The translations under genes were made by a program, and so were the position numbers. Shown here one piece after another: positions 9,500 through 37,039 of a DNA stretch of 37,039 nt. The notes below the pieces were generated by a model. It saw only the letters and a list, made by a program, of their open reading frames with translations, did no database searches and was not told where the DNA came from. Every line of letters begins with the position of its first letter. The stretch's first letter is position 1. This DNA comes from Solirubrobacterales bacterium (GTDB lineage: Bacteria; Actinomycetota; Thermoleophilia; Solirubrobacterales; 70-9). Where the stretch lies: positions 1 through 37,039 of the forward strand of contig JBQCCT010000071.1 of NCBI GenBank assembly GCA_051961955.1. Reading direction: 5' to 3'.

Positions 9500-9598
9500 G
9501 CCTTCGATTCAAGCGCCGCGCCGTCGTCGTCGCTTCGCCTGTTCGGGCCAAATTCGGATGGCCTTTTCGGGCCATATCTCCGGTTCTAAGCTTGGTTC

Positions 9599-10559: not shown

Positions 10560-12041
10560 TCAGGTCTCGGCCGCTCGCTCGCCCTTTGGATGCGTACCGG
10601 TAGATCGATCGACTGGACGTGCATCCCTGGCGGGCAACGACACAACGAGCTGCGCGCCACCTAGCTCCGGCGACGTTTCGGTGATAACGGTCCCCCCATG
10701 GGATGCCGCAATCGCTTTCACCATGGCCAAACCTAATCCGGTTCCATCGCTTGCAGCGGTATCGGAGGAACTTGCACCTCGTACAAATCGCTCGAACACA
10801 TGATCTTTCAGCTCGCCAGGGATCCCTGGACCGCTGTCGGAGACGCTGAGGACAACCGCGTTGGCCTCCCGCTCCCAGCTCGTGGTTAGTGAAATTTGAG
10901 CTTCGTTCGGGGTGTACCGGACGGCGTTGTCCAGCAGATTGAGCGCAAGGCGGTGCAATTCGTCTCGATTGCCATGCACTGGAGCAGCCCGGCAATCAGT
11001 ACGCAAGGTGCGCTCGCCTAAGTTCGGCGAGATCTCGCGAGCCGCGCCTAGGGCGACGTCAGAGAGATCCAAGTCGACCTTCGGTCGTGCCTGTCCCGCA
11101 TCGTTACGCGCCAGCAGCAAGAGGTCTGACACCAAACGACTCATTCGCTGGGATGAACGAACGGCGGATGCCGCAAGTTCTTGCTCTTCCCCATAGCTGT
11201 TAACGCTTCCGAGCTGAGCTTCAAGCAGTTCAAGATTCGCCAGGATGCTCGTAAGTGGAGTGCGCAGCTCGTGCGAGGCATCAGCAACAAACTCACGCTG
11301 TTTTTGCATCGCTTTCTCGCGTTCGATCTGAGATGCATCTAACGCACTAAGCATGTCTTGCAGAGTGCTGCTGAGCTCAGCTACCTCGTCTTCCGCCGTC
11401 GGCTGTGGGAGCTTCCTCGAAGCATCCCTGGTGGCAGCTATTTCCCGGGCGCTTGACGTCAGGGTCGCAATCGGCTTCATCGCACGACGAGCCAGAGCAA
11501 CACCTGCAAGAACTGCCAGGGCGGTCCCTCCCAAGATTCCCGCCACAATGAAGAGCCAGAGCTTCGCGACGGTTGCATCTACATGACTGTCACTCCGCGC
11601 GTACTGGATATACCCAACAATTTCATTGTCAGGTCCCAATACAGGTTGGGTGGCCACTGAAACAGAACCAACAGCAGTAAGACCGAGCTTCGGCAAGCCC
11701 AGATCAGCATGGTCCTTGGGAGCTTCATCAAGAACAACTCCTTCAGTGTTGACGACTCGTGCCGTTGCACCATTTGGCAGGGATACAGCTCGCAAATCAG
11801 GGCTATAAACCGCCGGTTCCTGGAACGGCCTTTCGACAATCCGGGTCTTGCTCACTAGACGGGCCGCGGCGTCCTCTAGGTCTCGGTTGAAATCGCTACG
11901 AATGCGATTCGTGGCGACGGTTCCGACGATGCCGCCAAACACGAGGAGTATCGCAAGGGTTAACGAGGCCGACACGATCGCCAGCTTCCACCGGATCGGC
12001 CAGCGTTGAAAAGGGGGTACAGGGACCTTAAGAAGGGCCAC
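10560..12041 (-). CDS. Sensor histidine kinase (2 TM + HAMP + HisKA + HATPase_c)
   Basis: H-box FVADASHELRTPLTSI, N-box LLDNAVRYTP, G1 DSGPGIP, G2 GTGLGLAMV. GTG start at 12041. Visibly lower GC than the flanks. No response regulator is adjacent. Confidence 0.9.
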   Translation of the reverse strand: MALLKVPVPPFQRWPIRWKLAIVSASLTLAILLVFGGIVGTVATNRIRSDFNRDLEDAAARLVSKTRIVERPFQEPAVYSPDLRAVSLPNGATARVVNTEGVVLDEAPKDHADLGLPKLGLTAVGSVSVATQPVLGPDNEIVGYIQYARSDSHVDATVAKLWLFIVAGILGGTALAVLAGVALARRAMKPIATLTSSAREIAATRDASRKLPQPTAEDEVAELSSTLQDMLSALDASQIEREKAMQKQREFVADASHELRTPLTSILANLELLEAQLGSVNSYGEEQELAASAVRSSQRMSRLVSDLLLLARNDAGQARPKVDLDLSDVALGAAREISPNLGERTLRTDCRAAPVHGNRDELHRLALNLLDNAVRYTPNEAQISLTTSWEREANAVVLSVSDSGPGIPGELKDHVFERFVRGASSSDTAASDGTGLGLAMVKAIAASHGGTVITETSPELGGAQLVVSLPARDARPVDRSTGTHPKGERAAET

Positions 12042-12204
12042 GGCGCCATTCTACGGCCCGCCACCTGCCAATCAGTACTTTTAGATTTGCTTCAAGTTCC
12101 GGTTCAGCCGGCCACCCAGCGCTTCGCTTCTTCGGTGACACGAGCCAGCGCCGGGGGCAGGCCGATCGTTCCCTGGCATCCCCTCGATCCGCTCGATCAT
12201 CGAT

Positions 12205-13326
12205 TCACACCGGGTACCTCAGGATCGCCGCCGCGGGGCCGCCGCCGGGGACATCGGCGGCCCGCACGGCGAGCACCGTGCCGCCGGCGAGGATGACGCG
12301 ACGACATAGCTCGTCGATGACGCCGTAATCACCGGCCTGCTCGACATCGTCAAGCGACACCGCGCCCGAGTCCTCGTCGATCGTCCCGGCCAGCTTGGCA
12401 TCGATGTCGACAAAGAGGGTTTCGACGGCGCCAAAGGTCGCAGCGCGACCGAGGTCGTTGATCTCGACGGCGCTGCGGCCGGCGGCCGAGCGCTGCTCGA
12501 ACTGGTCGGTCAGGTCGCGTAGCTGGTCGGCGTAAAGGCCGTCGAGGACCTCGCGGGCGGCCTCCCCCAGTTCGGCGTCGGTGGAGGCCTCCGGGCTGCC
12601 CGAAAGCGATCGGTCAGCCAGACGGGGGTAGGAATTAACCGAGCGGAAGATCGCGTCGATCAGCTCGGACGCCGCCAGGATCAGCGGCACGTCGCGGCCG
12701 ACCAGCACCGTCCCCAGCGCCTTGTCAACCGCGCGTGCGTAGTTGCGGACCAGCGTCTTGCGACCCTCGGTGCCCTGCAAGCGCCGGGCCGGGGAGCGGT
12801 CGGTGATCGAGGCCTTGCCGACGGCATCCGCCGCGCCCCTCGGCAGGTCGGGCACGCGCACCTCGAAGGTCGGCAGGTCGGGAGTTACCTCCAACAAGCG
12901 CACCGAGCCCTCGGCGAGTGCCAGCACAAAGGCCGTCTGCGGGAAAGTGACAGTACGCAACAGCGGCTTTACGTAGTAACGGTCGGCGACTTGGACCGCC
13001 GCCGTCAACCGATTCGGCAGGCGAAAGCTGCGCAGGCCGTGAGCGTCGACGAAGACCGCGAGCGAGTGGGCCTGCTCCGCCCAGAACCGATGATCGTCGT
13101 GGAGGTCGTCGAGCGCCTGCTCGATCGCCTCGCGATCGGCCCTGGCACTTCCCGTATCCAACTCCGCCACCGCCTCGCCGGCGAGGTTCTTGAAGGCGAT
13201 CCGGGCCGCATCGGCCTCGGGAGTGATCGGGCTGGTCGGCAGGTAAATCGAGACAAGCTGGTCTCCACGGGCCTGCAGAAGACGCTCGATCTGACGGCGG
13301 CTCGGGATGTCGGTGTGAAGAGCCAC
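12205..13326 (-). CDS. Bacterial archaeo-eukaryotic release-factor-like (baeRF family, baeRF3-like) protein
   Basis: 373 aa. N-terminal ...LVSIYLPT..., central FRLP...DRYYVKPLL, and a C-terminus ending AAILRY match my memory of baeRF-family architecture. Not verified by search. Confidence 0.5.
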   Translation of the reverse strand: MALHTDIPSRRQIERLLQARGDQLVSIYLPTSPITPEADAARIAFKNLAGEAVAELDTGSARADREAIEQALDDLHDDHRFWAEQAHSLAVFVDAHGLRSFRLPNRLTAAVQVADRYYVKPLLRTVTFPQTAFVLALAEGSVRLLEVTPDLPTFEVRVPDLPRGAADAVGKASITDRSPARRLQGTEGRKTLVRNYARAVDKALGTVLVGRDVPLILAASELIDAIFRSVNSYPRLADRSLSGSPEASTDAELGEAAREVLDGLYADQLRDLTDQFEQRSAAGRSAVEINDLGRAATFGAVETLFVDIDAKLAGTIDEDSGAVSLDDVEQAGDYGVIDELCRRVILAGGTVLAVRAADVPGGGPAAAILRYPV

Positions 13327-24326: not shown

Positions 24327-25343
24327 GTGAAGATCGGCCGCAATCACGGGGTCACCCTGCCTGATCAGCTGAGTCGGTTCCAAGACAAGCTGGATCTTTA
24401 CGCAACGGACACCTATTTCCTTGAGAGCTGGGAGGACCTGCTTGCCGTAGCAGGTAATCAATCGCTTGCCTCCCTGTCCCGGTTCGCATCGCTCACGCTG
24501 AAGCCCGACGCGGTGGTGGGACGTACCCTCAAGCCGACGATGAAGTGGCTCGTCGACCATGGTTTCTCCATCGTCGCCGCCGAGCTTGTTTACTTCGACC
24601 GCCACATCACGCGCGGCATCTGGCATTACTCGTGGAACGTCGCCAGTCGCGATCGCAAGGACGTCGTCGACATGCTTCTCCCGGCGACCCCCTCCCTGTT
24701 CCTGGCGCTTCGTGGTCCCGAGGATGCGTCTTTGTGGCTCAGCGCAAACAAGGGCCCGGCCAATCCGAAGTACCGCCAACCGGGCCAACTCCGTTACGGC
24801 CTCGGTTATTTCAGCACCCTGCTCAACTTTGTACATACCTCCGACGAGCCAGCCGACGTCATTCGGGAGCTGGCGGTGTACTTTCCGGCGCCGACCAGAC
24901 GACGCATCTACCAAGCCATGAACTCGGGGGATGCGCTGCAGCACGCGGAAGACCTGGCCAGCGAACTGGAAGATCGATTTCTCCCGCACGACCTTGCGCT
25001 CGACGCCTCGATCGAGCGGATCCGTGTGCTGGTAGATGCTGGCCAGAACGGTGGCAGCCGCGACCGCACGGCCTTGAGGAGCCATCTCGACGAGATAGCC
25101 AACGGAGGTACCCGCGATTGGAAGACGCTCTTTAGCTTGCTCGAGGCAGTCGGAGTTCCTTGCGAGCCCTGGGACCTGATCGTTGTCGCAACTAATCTGG
25201 TTCAGATAGACAATCCGGATGTCGACCCGATGCTGCCAGCTATCAGCTCGTTGAATCTGCCGACCGCGGCGACCGAAATCGAGATAGCAACAGCAAAGGG
25301 CGGTGCTGCCACGGAGCTCCAGAGAGCGCCTACACGAGGGTAG
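24327..25343 (+). CDS. Nucleoside-diphosphate-kinase-fold protein with an unknown ~150-aa C-terminal extension
   Basis: Residues ~53-186 align by eye to NDK: TLKPDAV (cf. IKPDAV), GFSIVAAEL, GPANP...PGQLR, and NFVHTSD (cf. N.[IT]HGSD, His codon at 24834-24836). Lower GC than upstream genes. GTG start. Confidence 0.6.
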   Translation: MKIGRNHGVTLPDQLSRFQDKLDLYATDTYFLESWEDLLAVAGNQSLASLSRFASLTLKPDAVVGRTLKPTMKWLVDHGFSIVAAELVYFDRHITRGIWHYSWNVASRDRKDVVDMLLPATPSLFLALRGPEDASLWLSANKGPANPKYRQPGQLRYGLGYFSTLLNFVHTSDEPADVIRELAVYFPAPTRRRIYQAMNSGDALQHAEDLASELEDRFLPHDLALDASIERIRVLVDAGQNGGSRDRTALRSHLDEIANGGTRDWKTLFSLLEAVGVPCEPWDLIVVATNLVQIDNPDVDPMLPAISSLNLPTAATEIEIATAKGGAATELQRAPTRG

Positions 25344-25503: not shown

Positions 25504-25794
25504 TCAGACGCGGGCGATCGCAGCGTCGGACGTCCGAGCGTCGTGGAAGGCGATAACAACGACACGATCCTTGGCCTCGACGTACATGTAGACGACGATC
25601 AGCCAGCCCCAAGGACCGATCAGCGCCCGACAGTCCCGCCAGACACCCGAGAGCTGCTTGCCGGCGCGCGGAAACTCCTCCAACATGAGCAACGTGCGCG
25701 AGACCCGTTCGCGCGTGTCGACCGGAAGCTGGCGAGTCTCGATGAGCTCATGAAGCTCGTCACGCGCCAAGCGCGTGACCTCGATCGTCGCCAT
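25504..25794 (-). CDS. Type II toxin-antitoxin system toxin, RelE/ParE family
   Basis: 96 aa. Lies 3 nt downstream of a ribbon-helix-helix gene. The size and the pattern ...EFPRAGK...RALIGPWGWLIVVYMYVEAKDRVVVIAFHDAR are ParE/RelE-like. Confidence 0.7.
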   Translation of the reverse strand: MATIEVTRLARDELHELIETRQLPVDTRERVSRTLLMLEEFPRAGKQLSGVWRDCRALIGPWGWLIVVYMYVEAKDRVVVIAFHDARTSDAAIARV

Positions 25795-25797
25795 CGA

Positions 25798-26055
25798 CTA
25801 CAGCTCGGAGAGTGGCACCGTCTCGCCACCCCGAGCCTGCTCGATCGAAGCCTGCGCCCTCTCCCATGCTCCAGGAATCCCGTCGAGGATTTCAGTGATC
25901 CGCCACGCATCGGGGTCGGCTTCGTCGAGCGCGCTGGAGAGGAGCGAGCGAGCCAGGGTTCCCTCCTGCACATGCGTGCGCTCCGCCAGGCTCGCCAGCT
26001 TCTGCGCGTAGTCCGGCTCGAGGGTGACGTTGATTCGGCGGTTTCGCTCAGCCAT
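25798..26055 (-). CDS. Ribbon-helix-helix (CopG-like) antitoxin
   Basis: MAERNRRINVTLEPDYAQKLASLAERT is a typical RHH N-terminus. ATG at 26055 is preferred over 26091, because the extension would be encoded by the tandem operator-like repeats. Confidence 0.7.
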   Translation of the reverse strand: MAERNRRINVTLEPDYAQKLASLAERTHVQEGTLARSLLSSALDEADPDAWRITEILDGIPGAWERAQASIEQARGGETVPLSEL

Positions 26056-26059
26056 ATCC

Positions 26060-26090
26060 CAAGGGTACACGCAAGGGTACACGGCGTACA
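26060..26090. promoter_or_regulatory. Tandem 12-bp direct repeat CAAGGGTACACG x2 plus a partial third GTACA core, in the divergent TA/methyltransferase promoter region
   Basis: Read directly: 26060-26071 equals 26072-26083. It sits in the 65-bp gap between the antitoxin start (26055) and the small ORF start (26121). RHH antitoxins classically bind such repeats. Confidence 0.55.
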
Positions 26091-26120
26091 AAACACAAGA
26101 AATCGCGGTAGCCTCAATTT

Positions 26121-26303
26121 ATGGCTCACCACAAGCGCAAACGACCTAAGCACCGCCGGAGCGGTTGTCTCCTCTGCAAGCCTCAGAAGCTGGCGGCGAA
26201 TCGGAAGGCCGCGCGTCGGCGAGCCAACAGCTCTTGGCATCGGCATGAGGCGCTTGCGCATGACGATCCGCCTCATGGCCCCTTTGGCAGGAGTGGACCT
26301 TGA
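26121..26303 (+). CDS. Small highly basic protein with a CxxC pair (60 aa), function unknown
   Basis: MAHHKRKRPKHRRSGCLLCKPQK... Its TGA (26301-26303) overlaps the TTG (26300-26302) that opens the methyltransferase ORF, suggesting coupling. There is no clear SD, so coding status is tentative. Confidence 0.4.
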   Translation: MAHHKRKRPKHRRSGCLLCKPQKLAANRKAARRRANSSWHRHEALAHDDPPHGPFGRSGP

Positions 26304-27568
26304 GTCGAGACGCAACCTCCGAGACCTTCGTGAATCCGAAGGTGGGCGCAAGCTGTGATGCGGTGGACTCGTGGTACCGCTATTACGCGGGTTACTCCGC
26401 CAGCTTCGTCGAACAAGCTCTGAACAAGCTCCCCACAACGACGCAACTAGCACTGGATCCTTGGAATGGCACCGGAACGACCACGGTCGTCGCTGCCAGC
26501 AGAAAAATCTCGGCGGTCGGTTTTGATGTCAATCCAGCGCTAGTCGTGGTTTCTCGAGCCAGGTTGCTGGGCGCGGGAGTGTGGGCAAGCATCAATCCGC
26601 TTGGAGACGATGTGATCGCCCACGCGACTGCGACCGAGCTAGACAATGATGCACTTCGGTTTTGGTTCACGGAGCGCGCAGCCAACTCAATCCGAGGTCT
26701 TCAACAAAGCGTCCACCGCCTTCTCGTTGATAGTGGCACCGCCTCTCAGCCTGCCTATAAGACCTCGCCTGAAATGAGCACGCTCGCCGCTTTCTTCTAC
26801 ACGGCGCTGTTCCGCACCGTGCGGGTACTGATAGCCCCGAGGGGCGGGACCAACCCGACCTGGTGGAAGCGAGTTGCTAAAGCAGATCTTCTAGATCCGC
26901 GCCCTAAGGAGATCGTGAATCACTTCCGAGAGTCCACTCGGGAGTTGGCAAGAGGTCTGCACCGGGACAATTTCGACGGTGGTGTTGATGTCCGAGTGGG
27001 GCTGGCCGACAGTCGCAAGCTCCCGCTGGGCGATGACTCGATCGACGTTGTTGTCGGCTCGCCGCCGTACTGCACGCGAATCGATTATGGGGTAGCTACG
27101 CGCCCTGAGCTAGCGGTGCTTGGCGCAGGGGAGAGTGACGTCAAGCTCTTACGAAACAAGATGGTCGGCACGCCAACGATGACGGAGGACCGAGGGACCC
27201 CCGAGCGATGGGGACCAGCCGCGTCTGCGTTCCTCAAAGGCGTGGCGGGACATACCAGCAAGGCCTCAAGTGGTTATTACACGAACTACTTCCGCCAGTA
27301 TTACTCTGGAATGTGGAGTTCCCTCGGCGAGTTGCGCCGAGTAATGCGAGAAAACGCTTTCGCAGTCTTGGTTGTGCAAGACAACTACTACAAGGACCTC
27401 CACAACGACACCGCTGAGATCTTGGGAGAGATGGCAGTCGCGCGTGGCTTCGAGTCCGCCGAGCGCCACGATTTTCCGGTGATTCGGAACCGGGCGAGCA
27501 TGAATCCCCGCGCCCGTCGGTACCGCGCCAAAGCTTCAGCCGTTGAGAGCGTTCTCGTCCTTCGATAA
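26300..27568 (+). CDS. DNA methyltransferase, amino-MTase type (N4-cytosine or N6-adenine), motif I before motif IV
   Basis: Motif I is LDPWNGTGTT (26456-26482). Motif IV is SPPY (27059-27070), about 190 aa downstream. The exact start is uncertain: TTG at 26300, or an internal GTG. Confidence 0.8.
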   Translation: MSRDATSETFVNPKVGASCDAVDSWYRYYAGYSASFVEQALNKLPTTTQLALDPWNGTGTTTVVAASRKISAVGFDVNPALVVVSRARLLGAGVWASINPLGDDVIAHATATELDNDALRFWFTERAANSIRGLQQSVHRLLVDSGTASQPAYKTSPEMSTLAAFFYTALFRTVRVLIAPRGGTNPTWWKRVAKADLLDPRPKEIVNHFRESTRELARGLHRDNFDGGVDVRVGLADSRKLPLGDDSIDVVVGSPPYCTRIDYGVATRPELAVLGAGESDVKLLRNKMVGTPTMTEDRGTPERWGPAASAFLKGVAGHTSKASSGYYTNYFRQYYSGMWSSLGELRRVMRENAFAVLVVQDNYYKDLHNDTAEILGEMAVARGFESAERHDFPVIRNRASMNPRARRYRAKASAVESVLVLR

Positions 27569-27601
27569 GATTTTCATGGAAAACATGGAAGACGTGGTAA
27601 C

Positions 27602-28429
27602 ATGGATTCCATGGAACGAGTCGAAGATCTAATAGAGGTCGTTACTGCCCTCCGACTCGCCAACGAGGCTTTGGTCGAGGCGACTTCGTCCGGCGATACC
27701 GCTGAGGCGACTCGACTACTCGAGGATGTGGCCATCCTCGAGCGCCGCAGGAACCGCCTGGTGCACAAGAGCAACCCGAAGGTGGCCCCAGCCGGATCGT
27801 CATACGAGTCTTCGATCCCCCTGCGAGATCAGCTGATCCGGACCCTGCGGCTTACGAAACGCCCTTCTAGTGCCCGCTTGGTCTCGGATGTAACGAAGTC
27901 TCGCTGGGGCGAGTCGGTGGATACGCGCAAGCTGTCCTCCCTGCGCCGTGACGAGGCGCGAAGCTGGCGAAAATCTCAAGGGCTACCAGGGCGGCGAGCT
28001 CGCGACGTCTACGTTGTGCCGGCGCTGGCCTTCGACCGGTTCACTCCCGTACGCGGAACGATCGCGCTCTCCACCTGGCCGACCAGTCTGCGGCTAATCG
28101 CCCCGCTCTCGCCTCGGGTCGACATGTTGCACAGCACGATCTCACTCGCCGAAGAGGCGTCGGCCGTAACGGGAACGACCTACGAGGACCCGATGATCCG
28201 TCTGGTGGCCCGCCTTGGCGCGACCATTCCAGGAATCAAACCCTTCGGCGCCGATCCCGAGGCCGTAGCTGAGGGCGCTCGAACGGAGCTAATGGAGATC
28301 GAGGCGAATGATGAACTCGAACGCTCTATGGCCGCGAAGCGAGCTGAATCCCAGCTCGATGCAGAGGCCCTTTTGTTCGGTACTCAGATTCAAACGGTCG
28401 CCCTACACGCCACCGGAGAGTCCCGATGA
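27602..28429 (+). CDS. Hypothetical protein (275 aa), no recognisable motif
   Basis: Clean ORF with codon usage consistent with its neighbours. Its stop overlaps the next start (ATGA at 28426-28429). N-terminal helical/coiled region and a basic central region. Confidence 0.6.
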   Translation: MDSMERVEDLIEVVTALRLANEALVEATSSGDTAEATRLLEDVAILERRRNRLVHKSNPKVAPAGSSYESSIPLRDQLIRTLRLTKRPSSARLVSDVTKSRWGESVDTRKLSSLRRDEARSWRKSQGLPGRRARDVYVVPALAFDRFTPVRGTIALSTWPTSLRLIAPLSPRVDMLHSTISLAEEASAVTGTTYEDPMIRLVARLGATIPGIKPFGADPEAVAEGARTELMEIEANDELERSMAAKRAESQLDAEALLFGTQIQTVALHATGESR

Positions 28430-29595
28430 CCAACACGCCAAGTCGGCTCGAAAGTTTCCGTGGAGAATTCCCCCGGCAACAGCTCAATGCGCGCCGCGTC
28501 GCGGGTGCGCTTGAGGCCCCAGGGTGCGAGCGCCGCACCGCGCTTGATGCGGCAGGGGTCAATCTGGACAAACTCGGAAGCTTGGTGAGCGGTCTCCCAA
28601 GGGATCGGCAGTCGCCGTTCGCCATCGCCCGCGGCAACCAGTTCGAGCAACAAGTATTGGCGAACGGGATGGCAGAGATCGTACGTCTTGCGCGACGTCA
28701 TCTTGACCTTGAGATTCCCGAAGTGCGCCAGCTTGACCTCTCCGCATCCGGGCTAAGAGAAGCCTATCCCGGGATGACCGGAAGCAGGATGAATGAGCTG
28801 CGAGCGACGCTTACGCGCCAGCGAGCGCAGGAGATGCTCGACGACCCGACCCACGCACCCAATCTGATCCGGCACGCCATGACCCGTCTCGACTTCGGTG
28901 GCGAGACCGTCTACCTCGAGCAGGACGTACTCGCCTTCGCCATCAACGGGCGGATTCACGTCATCGAGATCAAGTCCTACCCCCGCATTGATGGGCGCGC
29001 TGATCCAGTCCAAGCCTCGGCGACGGTCCGCCAGACCGCGGTATACGTCCTGAGCCTCCAGCAACTCATGCTCGAGATCGGCGCATCCCGAGATCTCGTC
29101 AATACCGTCACGATGATCGTGCTGCCCGAAAACCTGTCCTTTCAGCCGACTGCGGTGCCTATTGACATCGACATGCAGGTCCGCCGACTGCAACGTCAAT
29201 TGGCGACGGTCCCGCGGGCAGATGAGATCCTCGACGCCATCCCTGCCGGAACCCAGCTGCCACCGCACCCTGTTGGCGGGGCCAGTCCTGACGAGATAGC
29301 AACAGCAGTGACGGCCGCCAAAGAGGCCCTCGCACCACTGTCCCCCCGGTTTACGGACGGATGCGTTTCCTGCCCACTGTTCTCCCACTGCCGGGGCGAG
29401 GCGGAGCTCCATCGCTCCACTGCACGACTCGGCTCCGCCGTGGCGGGCGCCTGCGGCAACGTGACCGACATCGGCGCCGTCCTCGACTTGGCCGAGGGCG
29501 GCCGGGGCCCAGCCGACACCTCCGAGCTGGCAGTTGCGGCGGCCCTTGGGCGCGCTGCCGCCGCGGCCCGGCTCGCAACGAGAGGAATCGCGTGA
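28426..29595 (+). CDS. Cas4/RecB-like PD-(D/E)XK nuclease with a predicted 4Fe-4S cluster
   Basis: D167 (28924-28926), E181-I-K183 (28966-28974), Q203xxxY207. C34 plus C313-x2-C316-x5-C322 (29362-29391) is the Cas4/AddB-type cluster pattern. SD GGAGAG upstream. Confidence 0.75.
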   Translation: MTNTPSRLESFRGEFPRQQLNARRVAGALEAPGCERRTALDAAGVNLDKLGSLVSGLPRDRQSPFAIARGNQFEQQVLANGMAEIVRLARRHLDLEIPEVRQLDLSASGLREAYPGMTGSRMNELRATLTRQRAQEMLDDPTHAPNLIRHAMTRLDFGGETVYLEQDVLAFAINGRIHVIEIKSYPRIDGRADPVQASATVRQTAVYVLSLQQLMLEIGASRDLVNTVTMIVLPENLSFQPTAVPIDIDMQVRRLQRQLATVPRADEILDAIPAGTQLPPHPVGGASPDEIATAVTAAKEALAPLSPRFTDGCVSCPLFSHCRGEAELHRSTARLGSAVAGACGNVTDIGAVLDLAEGGRGPADTSELAVAAALGRAAAAARLATRGIA

Positions 29596-31010
29596 ACGCC
29601 CTGCGTACCCATCAGGCTCTTCGCGCTGCTGACGAGGGCCAAGCCATCGCGAAGACGACTCGGCGTCACATCCATCTAAGCCCACGCCCACTTGTCATCG
29701 TCGGCTACCACCTCGCCGGTGATCCCGGTGCACCACTCGCGTTGATGTGGGGAACCAGAAACGATGAACCCCCTCATTGCATGATCGTCCCGGAGCCTCG
29801 TAACCGTGGCCTCCGGTTCGAGGTCCTTGCCGAATTCGCCACCGAGTTCCTGGCCTATCTCGCCAGGTTCGAAAACCGCGACGAAGCCGGGATATGCCTA
29901 GATGCACCCCAACTCGTCGTTCCCAACGCCCCCACCGCCTCATGGCTAAGCGGAATCGTCGGCCGCTTCACCCGCAACCTGCAGACCGACGGCGACTCCC
30001 CAACGCCACTTTCAGTTCCGCTGGCCGGAAAGCATCTTTCCTTCTTCGTCGACCCTATGCCCGGAAGCTGCCTCGTCCTAGCTGCCACCGAGGTCCTTAC
30101 CACGCACTGGCAAACTGGTCAGCTTCCCTCAGAGGACCTCAATCTGGCAGCCCAACTCGGCTGGATCGATCCTCCGGCAGGCAAGAGCGGCCCGCAAGCC
30201 GCCAAGGAAGGAGAGGCGTCACCCCCAGCCGGCCCTAATTCTGACCCCAACTGGGATGCCGAAACCTTGGTCGAACTGATCCAGGATTGGCATGTCGCCA
30301 GAGACGATTCTGCCCGGGCCTCCGTAAGGCGTGATCTGGAGGGGGAGATTCGCGAGCAGCTCACCCCGGCGTGGAGGGACTGCTGGCGAACTCTGGCTTG
30401 CCTTGACTCCCTGCCAGTCGCGGACCACGTCGCTGAGCGGTGGAAATCGGACCGAGAAGATTGGACCTACCACCTCGATCGAGTCACCGAGGGTCGAGCG
30501 TACTTCCGAAACATCCCCACGCCGACCCAAAACGCAAGCCGGCTGGCCTTTCTGGAGGCCCGAACCGATGAGCTTCAGCGCGAGATGGCTTGGGACGATC
30601 CGCTCGTGATGGCAGCGGTAGTAGCCAGTGGCGAGGCCCTCGCTGGGCACGTTGTGGCAGTGGATCCTGACCGCAGAACCCCGAACTCCAATAACTGGAT
30701 GGTGCGCCGACCCTTGATCACGATCGAGCCGGAACTTGAGTTCAGCCGACCGGCCGGGACGATTCTCTTTCTCTCGACTAACCCTGGCGTAAAGCTGAAA
30801 GTGCTGCCATCGGATCCGGATGGCCTGATCCGCACCGAGGTTCTCAAGGGGGCTAACCAAACCTCGACGATCGGGCGTCTCCCCGATTCCGGCGACGACG
30901 TAGTACTCAGCCCATTTGGAAAGCCCGAGCGCTATCAGCGGCCAAAGGTCGAAGGCATCCCTTGGACGCACCAGCAGATCCCTGAAGTTGACTTTGGGGA
31001 CGCCCAGTGA
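29592..31010 (+). CDS. Hypothetical protein (~472 aa), no recognisable motif
   Basis: GTG at 29592 overlaps the nuclease stop (GTGA), and its stop overlaps the helicase start (GTGA at 31007-31010). The ORF prefix from 29361 overlaps the nuclease out of frame and is Arg-rich shadow. Confidence 0.6.
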   Translation: MNALRTHQALRAADEGQAIAKTTRRHIHLSPRPLVIVGYHLAGDPGAPLALMWGTRNDEPPHCMIVPEPRNRGLRFEVLAEFATEFLAYLARFENRDEAGICLDAPQLVVPNAPTASWLSGIVGRFTRNLQTDGDSPTPLSVPLAGKHLSFFVDPMPGSCLVLAATEVLTTHWQTGQLPSEDLNLAAQLGWIDPPAGKSGPQAAKEGEASPPAGPNSDPNWDAETLVELIQDWHVARDDSARASVRRDLEGEIREQLTPAWRDCWRTLACLDSLPVADHVAERWKSDREDWTYHLDRVTEGRAYFRNIPTPTQNASRLAFLEARTDELQREMAWDDPLVMAAVVASGEALAGHVVAVDPDRRTPNSNNWMVRRPLITIEPELEFSRPAGTILFLSTNPGVKLKVLPSDPDGLIRTEVLKGANQTSTIGRLPDSGDDVVLSPFGKPERYQRPKVEGIPWTHQQIPEVDFGDAQ

Positions 31011-32329
31011 GTGGCGCCGAAGCCGCTGCGAACGCTCGTGAGGAAGTGTGGAATGCCGTCGCGGCGGGCACTCGGTCCATCCTGGTCGACAGTCCCCCCG
31101 GCGCCGGCAAGTCGACCCTCGTGCGAGAGATCAGCCGCCGTGCGAAAGCACGCGCTCAGGTGCCCATCATCGTCCAGACGAATGATCAGGCCGACGACAC
31201 GATCCGTGGCTTCCTTGTCGACCAGGAACGCGGCGAGCCAGCCGTGCGGGTCGGCCGTCTCCACGGACACGACTACATACCCCCCGCTGAATTCGGCTCG
31301 CAGCCAGGAGTGACGTTCAGTCAAGCCATTAACGACCTCCATGACAGCGATCTGATTGTCGCCACTGCCGCAAAGTGGGCGACTGTCAACTTCGACCGAA
31401 CCTGGCCTTTTGCCATCGTGGACGAGGCGTACCAGATGCGGTCGGATCTACTGCTCCCAATCGGAGCACTTATGGAGTCGCTCCTCTTGGTCGGCGACCC
31501 GGGTCAGCTGGCCCCGTTCACCACCGCCGACGATACGCAATTCCGAGGCAGACCACTTTCGCCGGTCGAGACGGCGGCCGCAACGATCCTGACGACCCAA
31601 CCGGCGACCGCTCGCTTTGCCCTACCGATCTCCTGGCGCCTACCCAGCCACGCGACGAACTTGATTTCCGACGCTTTTTACGAGATCCCTTTCAGCGCCG
31701 GCACTAGATCAGAACAACGGCGCTTACAACGTGGCGTCATCCCGCTGCATCGCCGACGGGGGGCGGACGCAGTCGACAGTGCTGCACGCCACGGGTGGGC
31801 TTACATCGAGCTCGACGATCTGCTTATGCCTCAGACTGATCCCGACGCCATCGAGGCGATCGTTGAAGTCGTAGAGGAGACCTTGGAAGCCGACATCACG
31901 ATCGAAGACGAGCATGGAAGCAGGGGCCTCCGCCCCAGCGATGTCGCCGTCGGCGTTACGCATCGAGACCAACGAGAGCAACTCCGCACCGCACTTCAGA
32001 ACTCCGGTATGCAGACCGGGCTGCCCGTCGATGGCGTGGTTGTCGACACTGCCAACGTCCTGCAGGGACGCGAGTTCGAGGTTGTCATCGTCTGGCACCC
32101 GCTTTCCGGCCGCCGAGACGCCGGAGAGTTCCATCTCGACGCTGGTCGGCTATGCGTCCTCTTGAGCCGACATCGACATGCCTGCATCGTCGTCTCCCGC
32201 GGCGGGATCCGCAACCAACTCGCCGGCCACGCCCCAACCGAGCCTGTTTGGTTGGGCGAGAAACCGACCGTCGACGGGTGGCACGCTCACCTCACTGTGC
32301 TCGACCACCTCGTTGAGCACGCGGTCTAA
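31007..32329 (+). CDS. Compact superfamily-1 helicase / P-loop ATPase (Upf1/DNA2-like, AAA_11/AAA_12-type)
   Basis: Walker A PPGAGKST (31100-31117), motif II VDEAYQ, motif III LVGDPGQLAP, motif V TANVLQGREFEVVIV, motif VI-like CVLLSRHRHACIVV. Confidence 0.8.
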   Translation: MSGAEAAANAREEVWNAVAAGTRSILVDSPPGAGKSTLVREISRRAKARAQVPIIVQTNDQADDTIRGFLVDQERGEPAVRVGRLHGHDYIPPAEFGSQPGVTFSQAINDLHDSDLIVATAAKWATVNFDRTWPFAIVDEAYQMRSDLLLPIGALMESLLLVGDPGQLAPFTTADDTQFRGRPLSPVETAAATILTTQPATARFALPISWRLPSHATNLISDAFYEIPFSAGTRSEQRRLQRGVIPLHRRRGADAVDSAARHGWAYIELDDLLMPQTDPDAIEAIVEVVEETLEADITIEDEHGSRGLRPSDVAVGVTHRDQREQLRTALQNSGMQTGLPVDGVVVDTANVLQGREFEVVIVWHPLSGRRDAGEFHLDAGRLCVLLSRHRHACIVVSRGGIRNQLAGHAPTEPVWLGEKPTVDGWHAHLTVLDHLVEHAV

Positions 32330-32371
32330 GCGGTTTGCCGAACCCTCGGGCTGTCGACCCGAAGGTCGAAA

Positions 32372-32423: not shown

Positions 32424-32450
32424 AAAAGTCCCCATTTCCGGGGCCTTTTC
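32424..32450 (+). terminator. Weak hairpin followed by a T-run, downstream of the helicase gene
   Basis: AAAAGTCCCC-ATTTCC-GGGGCCTTTT. There are four G:C pairs plus an A/T extension with one mismatch. The T-run partly participates in the stem, so the call is tentative. Confidence 0.3.
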
Positions 32451-33035
32451 TAATAGCGGGGGCGGGTTTTGAACGGATATCCGCGACCGCGTACCGGCTC
32501 ACGGCGACCTGGAACTTGACTCAATCACGCGTTCGCGAGCCGCGGCCACAATGGCCCCATCATCCAGGCCCTTCAGCAGCGTGTCGTGGGCCGCGTGAAG
32601 GCGGGGGGAGCCGGCCCCTTGGCGAGTAGTCGTTGTCTCATGTGAGCACACGGACCAAAAGCCTCGCTGAACCGCCCAGGAGGGCCGACCTTAAGTGCCG
32701 AGTGCTTAGACACCGATCTTAGTAGGCGTTAGCCCCCCGCTCCAGAATCACTGCGCGGTTCGTTTCTAACGCCCTGCCGGGAGATCACGACGAGCCTAGT
32801 CAACTGGCGACGGCTTGCGCCTTCCGGATTGGCTTTGGAGTGGATCGAGCCTCTGCGCCCCGGGGCGCCCGAGCAAACCGCTGGGCTGCCCCAGCTCCCG
32901 TGGCTCGGGTCACGAGGCGATAATCGCGTCCTCCTGGTCCTTCAAGTCGGGGTGCAGTGGAAACGTGGTCAGCGGTCGCGGATCTGCCCCTCGTTTCGGC
33001 CTCTCAGCCCACCTTCAAGTACCGTGCTATTCAAT

Positions 33036-33632: not shown

Positions 33633-34139
33633 CTAACTCATCACGCGAAAGGTCGCCCGCATTACAGTTCTTGGGCGATCATGTTTTGCGGCTGCCGGCC
33701 AGGCCTCCTTGGACACCCGGTAGATTCCAGGCGTAGCTGACTTTGTCATGTGAATCGCCTGACATCTTCCAACGCTCCCCGATCGAAGGGTCAATCTGGG
33801 CATAAAAAACGAGCCCACGGGCTGGTTGATCCACGAGTTTCGCGCACGTCTTTGTAGCCGATAGGGCAGGCTATAAGCTGCATCGACAGTTCCATGATTC
33901 TCGATGCGGAAACGAATCACGCCGCCAAGTGGCACGGTCTTTCTGGAGCTTACAAGACGCACGTTGAACTTCGTGTTGGGATTGACCTTGACGGCCCTCG
34001 TGACACAGAATGGCCTAATAGCATGTTCTGGCTGCCTCGCGGCACCATCGGTTGGCAACGAAAACCATGCCGCTAGGCCGACCAGCCCCAGCACAACAGT
34101 AGCTTTAATTTCTCTCTGAATTGAAAACATCAAGCTCAC
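33633..34139 (-). CDS. Small membrane-anchored/secreted beta-sandwich-like protein (168 aa), function unknown
   Basis: N-terminal hydrophobic helix (ATVVLGLVGLAAWF), then an alternating beta-strand pattern (VPLGGVIRFRIENHGTV...TPGIYRV). Low GC. Lies 53 bp downstream of the protease gene on the same strand. Confidence 0.55.
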   Translation of the reverse strand: MSLMFSIQREIKATVVLGLVGLAAWFSLPTDGAARQPEHAIRPFCVTRAVKVNPNTKFNVRLVSSRKTVPLGGVIRFRIENHGTVDAAYSLPYRLQRRARNSWINQPVGSFFMPRLTLRSGSVGRCQAIHMTKSATPGIYRVSKEAWPAAAKHDRPRTVMRATFRVMS

Positions 34140-34192
34140 CTCTCAGTGCCTCGCAGATTCCTTAGGACGAGCCTAGACCTCTAACTTTACGT

Positions 34193-37039
34193 CTAGGGCT
34201 TCCACTTCACAATGTGGAGCGGTTCTTTGTCTTCCAGCGCTTGCAACGTTCCCGGGGCCGAGGGGTAGGCCGGCAGAGGCATCAGGGGCGTAAAGTAACT
34301 TTCGGCTTCTATTTCGTTGCCAGCCGTAAGCGTTCCCAGGGCAAGCCCGGTTCCACGCTCCCAGATCGGACCACCACTGTCGCCCCCTTTTGAATTGATT
34401 GCGAACGGAACCGTCGTCAGAATCGGGTTTCCGTCTCCGTGCTCTTCTCCCCAGCGCCGCGTATCTGGAGGCCACTGCATCGCTCCACACTTACTGTGGC
34501 CACGGGTAGAGCCCGCCACGCATACAACCATTCCCTCCTTGGGAGTGGTCACCCCCATGATTCTGATGTCCTGATCTGGCGACCAACGGATCACCCGTGG
34601 CACCATAGCCGGATCTTCTAGACGAATCGCCTCGCCGTCAGTCCCGTATCCCGATTCGTGGGCAACCATGGCGCTCCGTCGCACGTAACCGATCGTTCGT
34701 TCCCAGCAGCCTTCCAGACTTTCGTTTAGCGGGCAGTTGAACTGGTATACCCGGTCGCCGGATAGATAACAGTGACCAGCCGTTAGAAGGAAGCGCCTGT
34801 AGATAGCCGATCCGTCGGGGTTTTGCCCGCCTTTGTCCCAAGCGCCAAAACCAGCCGAACAAGCGGTGGAACCGCGCCCCCAGAGGCGCGTTGCGGCTTT
34901 GACCGCTCCGGTTGGTTCGCCCCAGGCCGAAGTTGACTTAAAGGTGGCCGCTTCGCTCTGCAGATAGACGTGGATCGGTTCTGATCCAAACAGAGCTTCG
35001 AGTTGTTGTGTCACTTCGGCTACGTTCGTAGCGCCGACGTCCACGCGGTTCTGTTCGACGTTGATCTGCACATCAACCAGCCCAGGAATTGAACCTGCAT
35101 CGGCGAGCACCGACCTTTCCAACGATTCCAGAGAACTCAACGAATGAGTTGGGAAACTCGGGAACGGGTGAATGCGGTTAGGTGCAATCAGCCCGCTCGC
35201 TTCCTGAAGCGCCGCCACTGTTTTCGCCTGGGCGGCGGTGAAGCCAACGTAGATGAGTCCTCCATCTCGGTGGCTCACATAGTACCCGGCGTAAACGGAA
35301 ATCGCCCCATTCGCTTCAACCCATTTAGGAATGGCCGTGGCCGCCTGATCGATGTACCTTTCCCTGTATTCCATCTCCGCCGCGTCGACCGCGCGAAGCG
35401 GAACGCCCCAAGTTTCGGAAGTCGCCCGCGCCACTTCCCCCGCCGGCGTCTGCGGGTTGTACCAGTCGCCGATCAGGTTGAAGATCCGTTCGTCGATCGC
35501 GATCTCGTTGCCTTTGAGGTCGAGGTCGAGGCCGAATTCTTCCCTGAACTTGGCGACTTCTTCGAAGGTCGGCGGTTCGGGCGCTTCCGGGTTCGGCGGC
35601 GGCGTGTAGGGGATGTTGACCCAGAATCGCGAGCTTTCCGTGTTGCCCCAGCGGTCCTTGACGATCACTTCGAGCTGGAGGATGCCGGGTGGCCAGTTGC
35701 CGGTGTTGGTCACCCAGGGGTCTTCGAAGGTTTTGCAGTTCGTCGTTTCGGTCACTTCGCAGGTCTTTTCGTCGACAAGCTGGTTGCCGTTGGCGACGAT
35801 CTTGATCGAAGCGATCCCGGGTTCCGCCGAATGGGCTTGGACCAAGAGCTCGTAGTCCCCCGCTTCGATCGGCGTCGCGGTTTCCTTGTTCGCGTAGAGG
35901 CTGCCCGAGAGGTTCTCGATTTCCGGGGCGAGCTGCGTGTTCCACCACTTGAGCACGGAGCCGTCGGGGGCGATGTCGTAGACGGTCGCCAGTTCCCCTT
36001 CTGGCGAGACCGTGGTCCGCTTCGGTTCGGTTTTGTATTTGAAGGTCGTGGTCTTGGCTTTGGCGCCTTCGACCGAGACGCTCACCGATTCGACTCGGCC
36101 GTAGGCTTCGTATTTGACTTCCCCCCAGGTGCCGTTGGGAAGCGTGACTTTGGTCAGGCGTTGCTGGGAGTCGTAGGTGTATTCGGTTTTGCCCCGTGAT
36201 CCGCTGACGGAGGTGAGCAGCTGGCCCTGGTGGGAATAGGTGGTGGCTCCGGCCTTTTCCCCTTCGACGCTGGTGACGAGGCCGGAGGACGTTTTGACCG
36301 CGACGGCGGGATCGGGTTCGACCGGGGCGGTCGCCGTGCTCGGCGCGGTGCTTCGAGCCACCCACCTCTCGATCCGGTTGTTGCCGGGATCCGTCACCCG
36401 GATGTTGCCGTTTGCTTCGATTGCCACACCGGCCGGGTCGCTGAGGCTGAACTGGCCCGTCCCGGCGCCGCTCGAGCCGAACTTGCTGACGTATTTGCCC
36501 GCTTCGGAGAGCTCCTGGACGCGCCCGTTGCCCTGGTCGGCGACGAAGACGTTGCCTTCGGCGTCGGTCTCGATCGCGTCGGGGTGTTTGAATTCGCCGT
36601 TGCCCGTCCCTTCTTTGCCCACCGTGCGTTTGTAGGCGTAGGAAGAGGTCCACTCCTCGATCCGGTTGTTCCCGGTGTCGGCGACCCAGAGGTAGCCGTT
36701 GGGGGCGGTGGCGATCGCGGTCGGTTCTTTCAACTGGCCTTCGCCTGAGCCCAGCGAGCCGAAGTGGGTGAGCAGTTCGCCGTTCGTGTTGAACTTCTCG
36801 ACCCGGTTGTCGGTCTTCTCGACGACGAAGAAGTTGCCGCCGCCGCTGGTCGTGATCCCGATCGGCGCTGCCATCAGGCCTTCGGCTGAGCCGGTGCTGC
36901 CGGCCTGGCAGACGTTGCCTGAGGAGGCGGTGCAGTGGTTCTTTTCGGCCAGGGTGCCGCCGGATTCGACCTTGGTCTTGTTGACGTTGGCGCCGACCGC
37001 GGAGACGAATTCCCCTTTTTCGTTGAAGCGCACGACGCG
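34193..37039 (-). CDS. Large secreted multidomain protein, 5'-truncated by the window edge: NHL repeats, YD repeats, Ig-like region, alpha-lytic-type pro-region and S1 (chymotrypsin-fold) serine peptidase
   Basis: NHL blades (GSGEGQLKEPTAIA...WVADTGNNRIEEW and two more). YD repeat TEYTYDSQQRLTKVTLPNG. Catalytic LLTAGHC (His) and KGGDSGGP (Ser) are at the C-terminus. The ORF is open to the end of the window. Confidence 0.8.
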   Translation of the reverse strand, partial: RVVRFNEKGEFVSAVGANVNKTKVESGGTLAEKNHCTASSGNVCQAGSTGSAEGLMAAPIGITTSGGGNFFVVEKTDNRVEKFNTNGELLTHFGSLGSGEGQLKEPTAIATAPNGYLWVADTGNNRIEEWTSSYAYKRTVGKEGTGNGEFKHPDAIETDAEGNVFVADQGNGRVQELSEAGKYVSKFGSSGAGTGQFSLSDPAGVAIEANGNIRVTDPGNNRIERWVARSTAPSTATAPVEPDPAVAVKTSSGLVTSVEGEKAGATTYSHQGQLLTSVSGSRGKTEYTYDSQQRLTKVTLPNGTWGEVKYEAYGRVESVSVSVEGAKAKTTTFKYKTEPKRTTVSPEGELATVYDIAPDGSVLKWWNTQLAPEIENLSGSLYANKETATPIEAGDYELLVQAHSAEPGIASIKIVANGNQLVDEKTCEVTETTNCKTFEDPWVTNTGNWPPGILQLEVIVKDRWGNTESSRFWVNIPYTPPPNPEAPEPPTFEEVAKFREEFGLDLDLKGNEIAIDERIFNLIGDWYNPQTPAGEVARATSETWGVPLRAVDAAEMEYRERYIDQAATAIPKWVEANGAISVYAGYYVSHRDGGLIYVGFTAAQAKTVAALQEASGLIAPNRIHPFPSFPTHSLSSLESLERSVLADAGSIPGLVDVQINVEQNRVDVGATNVAEVTQQLEALFGSEPIHVYLQSEAATFKSTSAWGEPTGAVKAATRLWGRGSTACSAGFGAWDKGGQNPDGSAIYRRFLLTAGHCYLSGDRVYQFNCPLNESLEGCWERTIGYVRRSAMVAHESGYGTDGEAIRLEDPAMVPRVIRWSPDQDIRIMGVTTPKEGMVVCVAGSTRGHSKCGAMQWPPDTRRWGEEHGDGNPILTTVPFAINSKGGDSGGPIWERGTGLALGTLTAGNEIEAESYFTPLMPLPAYPSAPGTLQALEDKEPLHIVKWKP

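Follow-up and report, generated by a model that had tools for sequence, protein, structure and literature searches.

We analysed a 37,039-nt stretch of contig JBQCCT010000071.1 from a Solirubrobacterales bacterium, here called the window; all coordinates given without a locus label are window positions. Five consecutive genes on its plus strand, at 26300-32329, form a compact cassette encoding a DNA amino-methyltransferase (methylase), a 275-aa protein, a predicted nuclease, a 472-aa protein and a helicase (Table 1). The five genes are translationally coupled. The last four are joined by 4-nt start/stop overlaps, as an earlier account made from the letters of the DNA (the sequence-only reading) had claimed: ATGA at 28426-28429, GTGA at 29592-29595 and GTGA at 31007-31010. 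The same reading had the stop of a small upstream open reading frame (ORF) overlapping the methylase start, and TTGA does stand at 26300-26303; AGGAG at 26289-26293 lies 6 nt ahead of that TTG. Codon-position GC content in the five large genes (about 0.5 at the second position, 0.62-0.73 at the first and third) is the pattern of real genes. For the fourth gene, mechanical ORF calling starts at an ATG at 29361 and yields 549 aa; we rejected this in favour of the GTG at 29592, because all 18 aligned homologues begin at that position (MNxLxTY...), which makes the protein 472 aa long. The low-GC setting described earlier is confirmed, the cassette having 62.2% GC against 67.3% for positions 1-24000, and the lower-GC stretch runs from about 24 kb on to the window end. 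A terminator-like hairpin about 100 nt past the helicase stop is a possible operon end but only suggestive, since a promoter and terminator pattern scan of the region gave site counts not above chance.

Table 1. Features of the window and of related loci (locus labels are ours; aa, amino acids)
Feature	Position	Strand	Basis or remark
338-aa protein with NDK-like domain	24327-25343	+	Pfam NDK, 1.3e-11; rest of protein unmatched
Candidate toxin-antitoxin pair: 96-aa ParE_toxin-like protein and ~85-97-aa protein	25504-26091	-	ParE_toxin 21.3 bits, E = 4e-4
60-aa very basic ORF, MAHHKRKRPKHRRSGCLLCKP...	26121-26303	+	in divergent intergenic gap, from RHH (ribbon-helix-helix)-like gene to methylase gene
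DNA amino-methyltransferase, 422 aa	26300-27568	+	TTG start; Pfam and PADLOC methylase matches
275-aa protein, family not recognised	27602-28429	+	co-conserved ORF
Predicted PD-(D/E)XK nuclease with four-Cys cluster, 389 aa	28426-29595	+	motif conservation
472-aa protein, family not recognised, between nuclease and helicase	29592-31010	+	GTG start
Minimal SF1B (superfamily 1B; Dna2/Upf1-like) helicase, 440 aa	31007-32329	+	AAA_11/AAA_12, motifs
Terminator-like GC hairpin, then T-run	32428-32454	+	pattern scan
168-aa Big_14 Ig-like protein, after 946-aa ORF	within 33633-37033	-	Ig-like, Big_14
946-aa ORF	34193-37033	-	NHL repeats, RHS repeat, C-terminal trypsin-like domain; ends 6 nt from window end
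sbcD-sbcC linkage, divergent upstream	L022, L032, L039, L040, L047, L048		remnants in L046 (third plasmid)
sbcD-sbcC linkage, downstream	L031:11972-13700		Acidimicrobiales metagenome-assembled genome (MAG)
Catellatospora triads	L026-L038, ~9000-12900 in each		ten species; bare triad

Relatives of the cassette were gathered as 38 loci from a scan of one genome per species, with more added by database look-ups, and their architectures were called by tblastn with six window proteins. There are three architectures: five genes (methylase, 275-aa, nuclease, 472-aa, helicase); four genes, without the methylase; and three genes (nuclease, 472-aa, helicase), a set that we call the triad. The five genes are co-conserved in the same order across many genomes, so the gene-order conservation that the sequence-only reading had proposed checking does exist. 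Against each of 13 five-gene loci the window cassette gave one blastn high-scoring segment pair (HSP) of 69-79% nucleotide identity, starting at 26311-26363 and ending at 32310-32333 (one locus being shortened by a contig end), and blastn found no DNA homology between the window flanks and these 13 loci outside the HSP limits. When 16 five-gene loci were compared with one another, flank homology was seen in 8 of 120 pairs, all eight within one group of close relatives. Among the hosts of five-gene loci are Solirubrobacterales, Mycobacterium, Phycicoccus, Nostocoides, Propionibacteriaceae, Nocardioidaceae, Ornithinimicrobium, Blastococcus and Microbacterium, to which come a MAG of the Dehalococcoidia and, from the Alphaproteobacteria, Tardiphaga. 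A gammaproteobacterium, Candidatus Thiodiazotropha, has homologues of the 472-aa and 275-aa proteins as well. These comparisons show that the cassette has been exchanged between phyla as a block of about 6 kb whose limits match the coding region.

The compact unit of the sequence-only reading had six members; its five genes at 26300-32329 are conserved, and its first, the 60-aa ORF, falls outside. We rejected this ORF as a sixth component because it is absent from 40 of the 42 compared loci (L001-L042) and because the DNA homology just described begins downstream of it. Its homologues (50-55% identity) were found only in L005 and L015, each in a gap on the opposite strand, 0.8-1.5 kb ahead of the cassette. 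The ORF is thus probably a genuine small gene that belongs to the surroundings. A phage origin of the cassette was likewise rejected, as neither IMG/VR viral contigs nor GenBank phages held any relative of it.

The assignment of the first gene to the amino-type DNA methyltransferases, made earlier from the motifs DPWNGTGTT and SPPY, is borne out by profile matches to Pfam N6_N4_Mtase (E = 2.2e-7) and, over the full length, to PADLOC MTase_II PDLC03306 (2.5e-18, residues 21-398). It is also borne out by conservation: SPPY is identical in 18 of 18 homologues and DPWNGTGTT in 17, the remaining one having DPWNGSGTT. Motif I (DPWNGTGTT, residue 53) stands about 200 aa ahead of motif IV (SPPY, residue 254), which gives the methylase the alpha-type motif order. 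The closest solved structures are N4-cytosine methyltransferases, over motif I only (E = 1e-3). A full-length relative with 35% identity is found on Roseomonas mucosa plasmid NZ_CP025192 (L049:6201-10054), in an operon with the order RelE/ParE toxin, regulator, methylase, DUF262 protein and MAE_28990-family HEPN-like nuclease. Because this relative heads a DUF262/HEPN operon, the methylase family appears to serve different effectors, as a modification arm for interchangeable effector modules. The Roseomonas operon is itself another apparently modification-linked nuclease module.

The third gene had been read as a PD-(D/E)XK nuclease with a Cas4/AddB-type cysteine cluster. Its motif residues proved invariant or nearly so, while no profile or solved structure matched it. 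The family is large: when 1.84 billion representatives were searched exhaustively with a hidden Markov model (HMM), 648 clusters at 50% identity were found (E <= 1e-3). Among 35 aligned, divergent members, 21-36% identical to the window protein, exactly six residues are invariant (C34, D167, K183, C313, C316 and C322), and E165, E181 and Q203 are nearly so. They fall into the putative catalytic set E165/D167, E181-x-K183 and Q203xxxY and the cysteine cluster C34 ... C313-x2-C316-x5-C322, in the style of Cas4, AddB and Dna2. The pattern E/D...ExK...QxxxY is the active site of RecB/Cas4-type PD-(D/E)XK nucleases, and a C...Cx2-3Cx5C cluster ligates an iron-sulfur (Fe-S) centre in Cas4, AddB, Dna2 and Bad. 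In Bad of Geobacillus stearothermophilus the Fe-S-ligating cysteine cluster has been described (PMC7430649). The motifs argue strongly for a predicted Fe-S PD-(D/E)XK nuclease. The 389-aa protein had no match in Pfam, NCBIfam, PADLOC, PHROGs or PDB; compared with solved Cas4, AddB and Dna2 structures, neither the single sequence nor a 19-sequence profile gave a match. Pfam scans of 19 and of 35 relatives gave only stray, weak NERD/PDDEXK_1 matches (PDDEXK_1 with E = 0.06 in 1 of the 19), and neither a profile search of 5.8 billion proteins nor the exhaustive HMM search led beyond this one unannotated family.

The 275-aa and 472-aa proteins had been described as lacking any recognisable motif, and they indeed have no match in Pfam, NCBIfam, PADLOC, PHROGs or PDB; all database relatives of these two and of the 389-aa protein are annotated as 'hypothetical protein'. 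The 472-aa protein has 1392 homologues, none annotated, and its gene always sits between those of the nuclease and the helicase, with a homologous middle gene even in distant triads. Its AlphaFold2 model is confident (predicted local distance difference test score, pLDDT, 87; predicted template modelling score, pTM, 0.84): an alpha/beta domain at the N-terminus is followed by a long helical stretch and a C-terminal beta-barrel, and the chain ends in a disordered tail. In Foldseek searches of PDB and BFVD this model had no match to a whole fold at E <= 1e-3; what came up were local similarities to barrels (riboflavin synthase, FAD-binding domains, F1 crown domains) and RNase H/RuvC-like matches of low probability. 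Within the disordered, variable tail (pLDDT < 50) a PWTH motif is invariant (residues 457-460, window 30960-30971), placed as one would expect of a short linear motif by which another subunit docks. The 275-aa protein has 164 homologues, in whose alignment the central motifs LSSLRRDExRSW and APLSPRV are highly conserved. Its AlphaFold2 model, of poor quality (pLDDT 61), consists mainly of helices and begins with a helical (coiled-coil) hairpin, and a Foldseek search with this low-confidence model returned nothing. The gene is present in five- and four-gene loci and absent from three-gene loci; it is confined to triads that have, or recently had, a partner module.

The minimal SF1 helicase of the sequence-only reading is there with all the motifs listed for it, Walker A GAGKST (K35), DEAYQ, GDPGQL and QGREF, which are conserved or conservatively substituted in 38 homologues. 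It matches Pfam AAA_12 (7e-10) and AAA_11 (8e-9), and its best PDB sequence matches are DNA2 (7e-5) and then NAM7/Upf1, so that the 440-aa protein is classed by sequence as a minimal SF1B motor. MkoA/MkoC, mad8 and NCBIfam PLuB_AAA each match only part of it, with scores that fall well short of the family cut-offs.

With moderate confidence we read 26300-32329 as a mobile, unnamed five-gene restriction-like immune cassette with a split Dna2-like effector. We infer this defence role from composition and context, and with it complex formation, DNA degradation, methylation-dependent discrimination and protection. In such a system the methyltransferase would mark host DNA at its recognition sites, and the four downstream proteins would form one effector complex. 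The SF1B helicase would translocate 5'->3' on single-stranded DNA and feed the strand to the Fe-S PD-(D/E)XK nuclease, the effector being in effect a Dna2 or Bad split into separate polypeptides. The 472-aa protein may be an obligatory bridge or the DNA-recognition subunit of the triad, and the 275-aa protein may be what joins the triad to its partner module, which is the methylase in this cassette but SbcCD in other lineages. Phage, plasmid or conjugative DNA that enters without the methyl mark would be unwound and degraded while methylated host DNA would be spared. On this reading the triad would be the ancestral engine, and its methylase-linked form one of at least two ways of equipping it.

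A different division of the cassette would make it two adjacent, independent units: a type II restriction-modification (R-M) pair, consisting of the methylase and the 275-aa protein as endonuclease, and a three-gene helicase-nuclease module. Type II restriction endonucleases often have 250-300 aa and are unrecognisable by sequence, which fits the size of the 275-aa protein; the methylase does match PADLOC type II methylase models over its full length, and the triad does exist alone elsewhere. However, the 275-aa gene occurs in 12 four-gene loci that have no methylase, where a type II endonuclease would be lethal, and because of these loci we rejected the 275-aa protein as such an enzyme. Moreover, its gene overlaps that of the nuclease by ATGA, its low-confidence helical model with a coiled-coil hairpin has no alpha/beta nuclease core, and all five genes have been transferred together as an exact block. 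We regard the two-unit division as very improbable.

The immune reading draws on the carriers and neighbours of the cassette. Tn7-like carriers with TniB/TniQ were found at L003 and L043; at L001 (Mycobacterium) the cassette is carried by an island with resolvase, integrase and transposase, and at L044 by an integrative element that encodes Replic_Relax, a large serine recombinase and a coupling protein of TrwB type. The Pfam families met most often in the flanks of 11 further loci were Phage_integrase (4), Resolvase/Recombinase (3), Replic_Relax (3), PIN (2) and SmpB (2). The neighbours of family members include pAgo with a DpnII-like endonuclease, DEAD/MZB helicases (DruE- or DrmAB-like) and type I methylase and specificity genes. 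Wadjet JetABC lies beside family members on two Streptomyces plasmids, directly downstream of the four-gene cassette at L046:7362-11778 (NZ_CP027023) and L048:9014-13452 (NZ_CP108489), as DUF3375 JetA, DUF4194 JetB and SbcC/MukB-like JetC. Of the plasmids, NZ_CP060826 and NZ_CP108489 are recorded as linear; in them the cassette match is about 5 kb and about 13 kb, respectively, away from a record end. This context supports the view that the cassette is typical mobile defence cargo.

The same context has been weighed for another possibility, that the cassette is a selfish addiction (post-segregational killing) module or an inter-element competition module of its carrier, and not antiviral immunity. 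The cassette is always on or next to integrative or transposable elements, with toxin-antitoxin (TA) genes (PIN/Phd, ParE-like), and the anti-plasmid system Wadjet is among the neighbours; pairing a methylase with a nuclease is also the classic architecture of addictive R-M systems. Mechanistically, however, this is the same as the immune reading, R-M being both selfish and defensive, and it leaves the methylase-less forms with an intact nuclease unexplained. We think a purely selfish role decidedly improbable.

Several observations weigh against the immune reading as set out above. First, the nuclease fold of the 389-aa protein is deduced from motifs, and no defence HMM matches anything in the cassette except for generic methylase and partial helicase matches. 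Second, the immediate flanks of five-gene loci hold recombinases and TA genes more often than recognised defence genes. Third, at L020 (Microbacterium paulum) and L042 (M. lacticum) the methylase is kept and the nuclease motifs are degenerate (LVMVKTF and VVAIRNF). Fourth, the triad also occurs with only the 275-aa gene, with SbcCD in place of the methylase, or alone. Since the core triad does not need a methylase, its target discrimination may not be methylation-based. Fifth, the recurrent and co-diverging SbcCD partner points towards DNA-end processing or repair. Sixth, the bare triad is syntenic in ten Catellatospora species, between dapD-like and M20/dapE-like genes. There it is vertically inherited at a housekeeping locus; its nuclease has lost the catalytic Asp and has ExR for ExK, and the four cysteines and all helicase motifs are kept, so it may be a domesticated or decaying copy. 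Vertical inheritance together with a degenerate site means that the family is not purely an accessory immune module.

The triad stays together down to 23-31% identity (L050-L053), and it is the older core, to which the methylase is not intrinsic. In two very distant cases (L052:7732-12984 and L053:128-7594) it stands beside one and the same block, in which a type I methylase and its specificity subunit are accompanied by proteins of 453/462 aa and 120 aa. The block lies downstream in one locus and divergently upstream in the other (L053 then continuing with further unannotated genes); it may be a second, independent methylase partnership of the triad. As to SbcCD, sbcD-sbcC adjoins 8 of the 12 methylase-less four-gene loci. 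The pair lies divergently upstream in Micromonospora, Frankia, strain KLBMP 9797 and two Streptomyces linear plasmids, and elsewhere downstream (Table 1). Identities of SbcD and of the 472-aa protein fall in step (94/89, 80/75, 66/58 and 39/28%), which means that the linkage is old and has been maintained. This suggests that the four-gene cassette and sbcCD form a six-gene unit pairing an Mre11-Rad50-type nuclease with the Dna2-like triad.

On the strength of this partnership, the triad, with or without the 275-aa protein, could be taken for a machine that resects or repairs double-strand break ends, a bacterial split Dna2 acting downstream of SbcCD; the methylase-linked copy would then be a mobile variant whose methylase is an unrelated or regulatory passenger. 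The presence of sbcD and sbcC in two arrangements, co-diverging with the four-gene loci, fits this well, as do the nearness of the helicase to DNA2, the Fe-S PD-(D/E)XK signature common to Dna2, AddB and Cas4, and the vertical inheritance of the Catellatospora triad. Yet the five-gene form is cargo of Tn7-like and integrative elements and crosses phyla as an exact block, behaviour not usual in repair genes; on Streptomyces plasmids the SbcCD-linked form is an additional copy and stands beside Wadjet; the vertically inherited copies have a degenerate nuclease site, which looks like decay and not like a maintained enzyme; and the methylase abuts the block in every five-gene locus, with motifs essentially invariant. 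We hold this repair reading to be unlikely.

A tabulation of nuclease motifs by architecture bears on how the triad is controlled. The five-gene loci, all loci linked to SbcCD and the distant triads have an intact D...ExK...QxxxY, apart from the two Microbacterium five-gene loci mentioned above and one frameshifted copy. Every three-gene locus lacking a partner, and likewise the four-gene loci that have no SbcCD, carries a degenerate site, through changes of K to R and of Y to H, V or T in addition to the Asp loss in Catellatospora. The cysteines and helicase motifs are kept in all architectures, those with degenerate sites included. A site intact with a partner and degenerate without one is as expected if an uncontrolled nuclease is hazardous, and the simplest reading of these motifs is that the nuclease is real and potentially dangerous and would be kept active only alongside a partner module, methylase or SbcCD.

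A broader version of the immune reading, which we consider doubtful, would make the triad a hitherto unrecognised bacterial split-Dna2 resection engine turned into a modular immune effector, licensed by a dedicated methylase that marks self DNA or coupled to an SbcCD of its own, with the 275-aa protein as adaptor to either. The SbcCD-coupled form would recreate the eukaryotic scheme 'Mre11-Rad50 opens, Dna2 resects' as a mobile anti-plasmid and anti-phage weapon.

We turn to the question of whether the immune cassette already has a name. No named system in PADLOC-DB 2.0 (2023), NCBIfam 20 (2026) or Pfam (2025) matches its component set. The mismatch with known systems stated in the sequence-only reading thus persists, and assignment to a named system was rejected: Pfam, PADLOC, NCBIfam and PHROGs scans of the six ORFs gave only generic methylase and helicase matches. 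A full-text literature search found no description of the gene set, although a description outside the searched literature and tools is possible. Of the earlier proposal of an undescribed modification-linked defence operon, the co-conservation, the lack of a named match and the mobile context hold, while the extent of the unit and the make-up of its core had to be corrected, to five genes and to a triad that the methylase need not accompany.

By overall plan the cassette compares with classical R-M, above all the ATP-dependent types I and III, and with DISARM and BREX, which likewise combine an amino-methyltransferase, a helicase and a nuclease in one operon; the cassette is likewise mobile, patchily distributed and often in defence neighbourhoods. 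It has instead an SF1B motor, a nuclease predicted to be of the Fe-S type and unannotated subunits, and its effector module also exists without the methylase. In type I R-M terms, the cassette has no Methylase_S, ResIII or HsdR match, and its motor is SF1B and not superfamily 2 (SF2). Res of type III R-M is an SF2 helicase fused to a nuclease, whereas the cassette reaches only E = 0.038 with ResIII, below the cut-off, and has a separate nuclease. DrmA (SF2), DrmB (DUF1998/MZB) and DrmC (PLD) of DISARM find no match in the five proteins with PADLOC or Pfam, nor do PglZ, BrxC and PglX of BREX/Pgl in the cassette. With type II R-M the cassette shares a methylase with catalytic and S-adenosylmethionine-binding motifs, but it has no stand-alone cognate endonuclease, the 275-aa protein of the 12 methylase-less loci being predicted to be helical and the 389-aa nuclease always being tied to the 472-aa protein and the helicase.

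Among other defence systems, MADS (methylation-associated defence system), with its gene set mad1-mad8, gave only marginal, partial matches: mad2 at 1.4e-4 across 44 methylase residues and mad8 at 2.6e-5 around Walker A in the helicase. The other three proteins gave nothing. The Mokosh helicase is of the same AAA_11/AAA_12 type, and partial MkoA/MkoC matches were found (best 7e-10); these cover helicase residues 113-397 and 319-397 against profiles of 1100-1600 positions and come with no PLD, whereas Mokosh itself has a PLD nuclease and very large proteins. Nhi also has an AAA_11/AAA_12-type helicase but is a single fused nuclease-helicase, while the cassette has separate genes with the 472-aa gene between them, a helicase for which PADLOC reported matches to MkoA/MkoC and mad8 only, and a nuclease without a PADLOC match. 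The nuclease had no Cas_Cas4 match, and no cas genes were seen among the called and scanned genes of the examined loci.

The closest mechanistic likeness is to Dna2 and to the Dna2-like bacterial helicase-nuclease Bad (PMC7430649). Both share the SF1B core, DNA2 being the best solved-structure match of the cassette helicase, and combine a four-Cys PD-(D/E)XK nuclease with an SF1B helicase, a combination that the Cys/D/K pattern of the 389-aa protein fits at the level of motifs only. They are, however, single polypeptides, whereas the cassette splits these functions between 28426-29595 and 31007-32329 with the obligatory 472-aa gene between; similarity to the Dna2 nuclease domain is undetectable in the 389-aa protein; and the cassette, unlike Dna2 and Bad, is linked to a methylase and to mobile elements. 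It is thus not a member of the Dna2/Bad family as defined, but by analogy would work most like a Dna2/Bad machine under R-M-like control. AddAB, AdnAB and RecBCD are likewise helicase-nuclease machines that degrade linear DNA from its ends, and AddB carries an Fe-S-stapled RecB-family nuclease domain. Their motors are SF1A, UvrD-like and fused to nucleases, whereas the cassette motor is SF1B and unfused, with UvrD_C_2 at E = 0.069; there is no sequence match, and neither a methylase nor anything corresponding to the 472-aa or 275-aa protein belongs to them. Two-step end resection by Mre11-Rad50 (SbcCD) and Dna2, and the archaeal mre11-rad50-herA-nurA operon, compare with the methylase-less relatives that are stably linked to sbcD-sbcC: in these, an end-opening nuclease is paired with a helicase-nuclease motor. 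The window cassette itself has a methylase and no SbcCD, and SbcCD-linked copies are plasmid-borne or beside Wadjet.

Other genes surround the cassette in the window (Table 1). The adjacent 'TA pair', cited earlier as evidence for an immune setting, turned out to be weak: the ParE match falls short of the Pfam cut-off of 23 bits, and its upstream partner has no Pfam match, although the N-terminus of the partner reads like a ribbon-helix-helix antitoxin. The pair is plausibly, though with weak support from these matches, a TA module. Directly upstream of this ParE-like pair, and like it within the lower-GC stretch, is the gene with the NDK-like (nucleoside-diphosphate-kinase-like) domain. Between 32.4 and 33.6 kb of the window we found no convincing gene; the 946-aa ORF and the Big_14 protein beyond it lie in the lowest-GC part (57-60%).

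By its gene content the cassette is a credible candidate for restriction that is tied to DNA modification and carried out by a helicase-nuclease effector; most of its parts come from unannotated families, and it matches no catalogued system. If it protects against phages or plasmids, it would be a new modification-linked immune system. It occurs across Actinomycetota, Chloroflexota and Pseudomonadota and is carried by Tn7-like and integrative elements. Three of its five components belong to large unannotated families, with at least 1392 (472-aa), 648 (389-aa) and 164 (275-aa) members or clusters. The occurrence of the triad with either a methylase or SbcCD is a natural experiment, in which one helicase-nuclease engine is placed under different control modules, and it is relevant to the way in which immune systems arise from components of DNA repair, as Lamassu and Wadjet do from SMC/Rad50. 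A split, minimal Dna2-like machine with an accessory subunit would also be a tractable model for the coupling of an Fe-S nuclease to a helicase.

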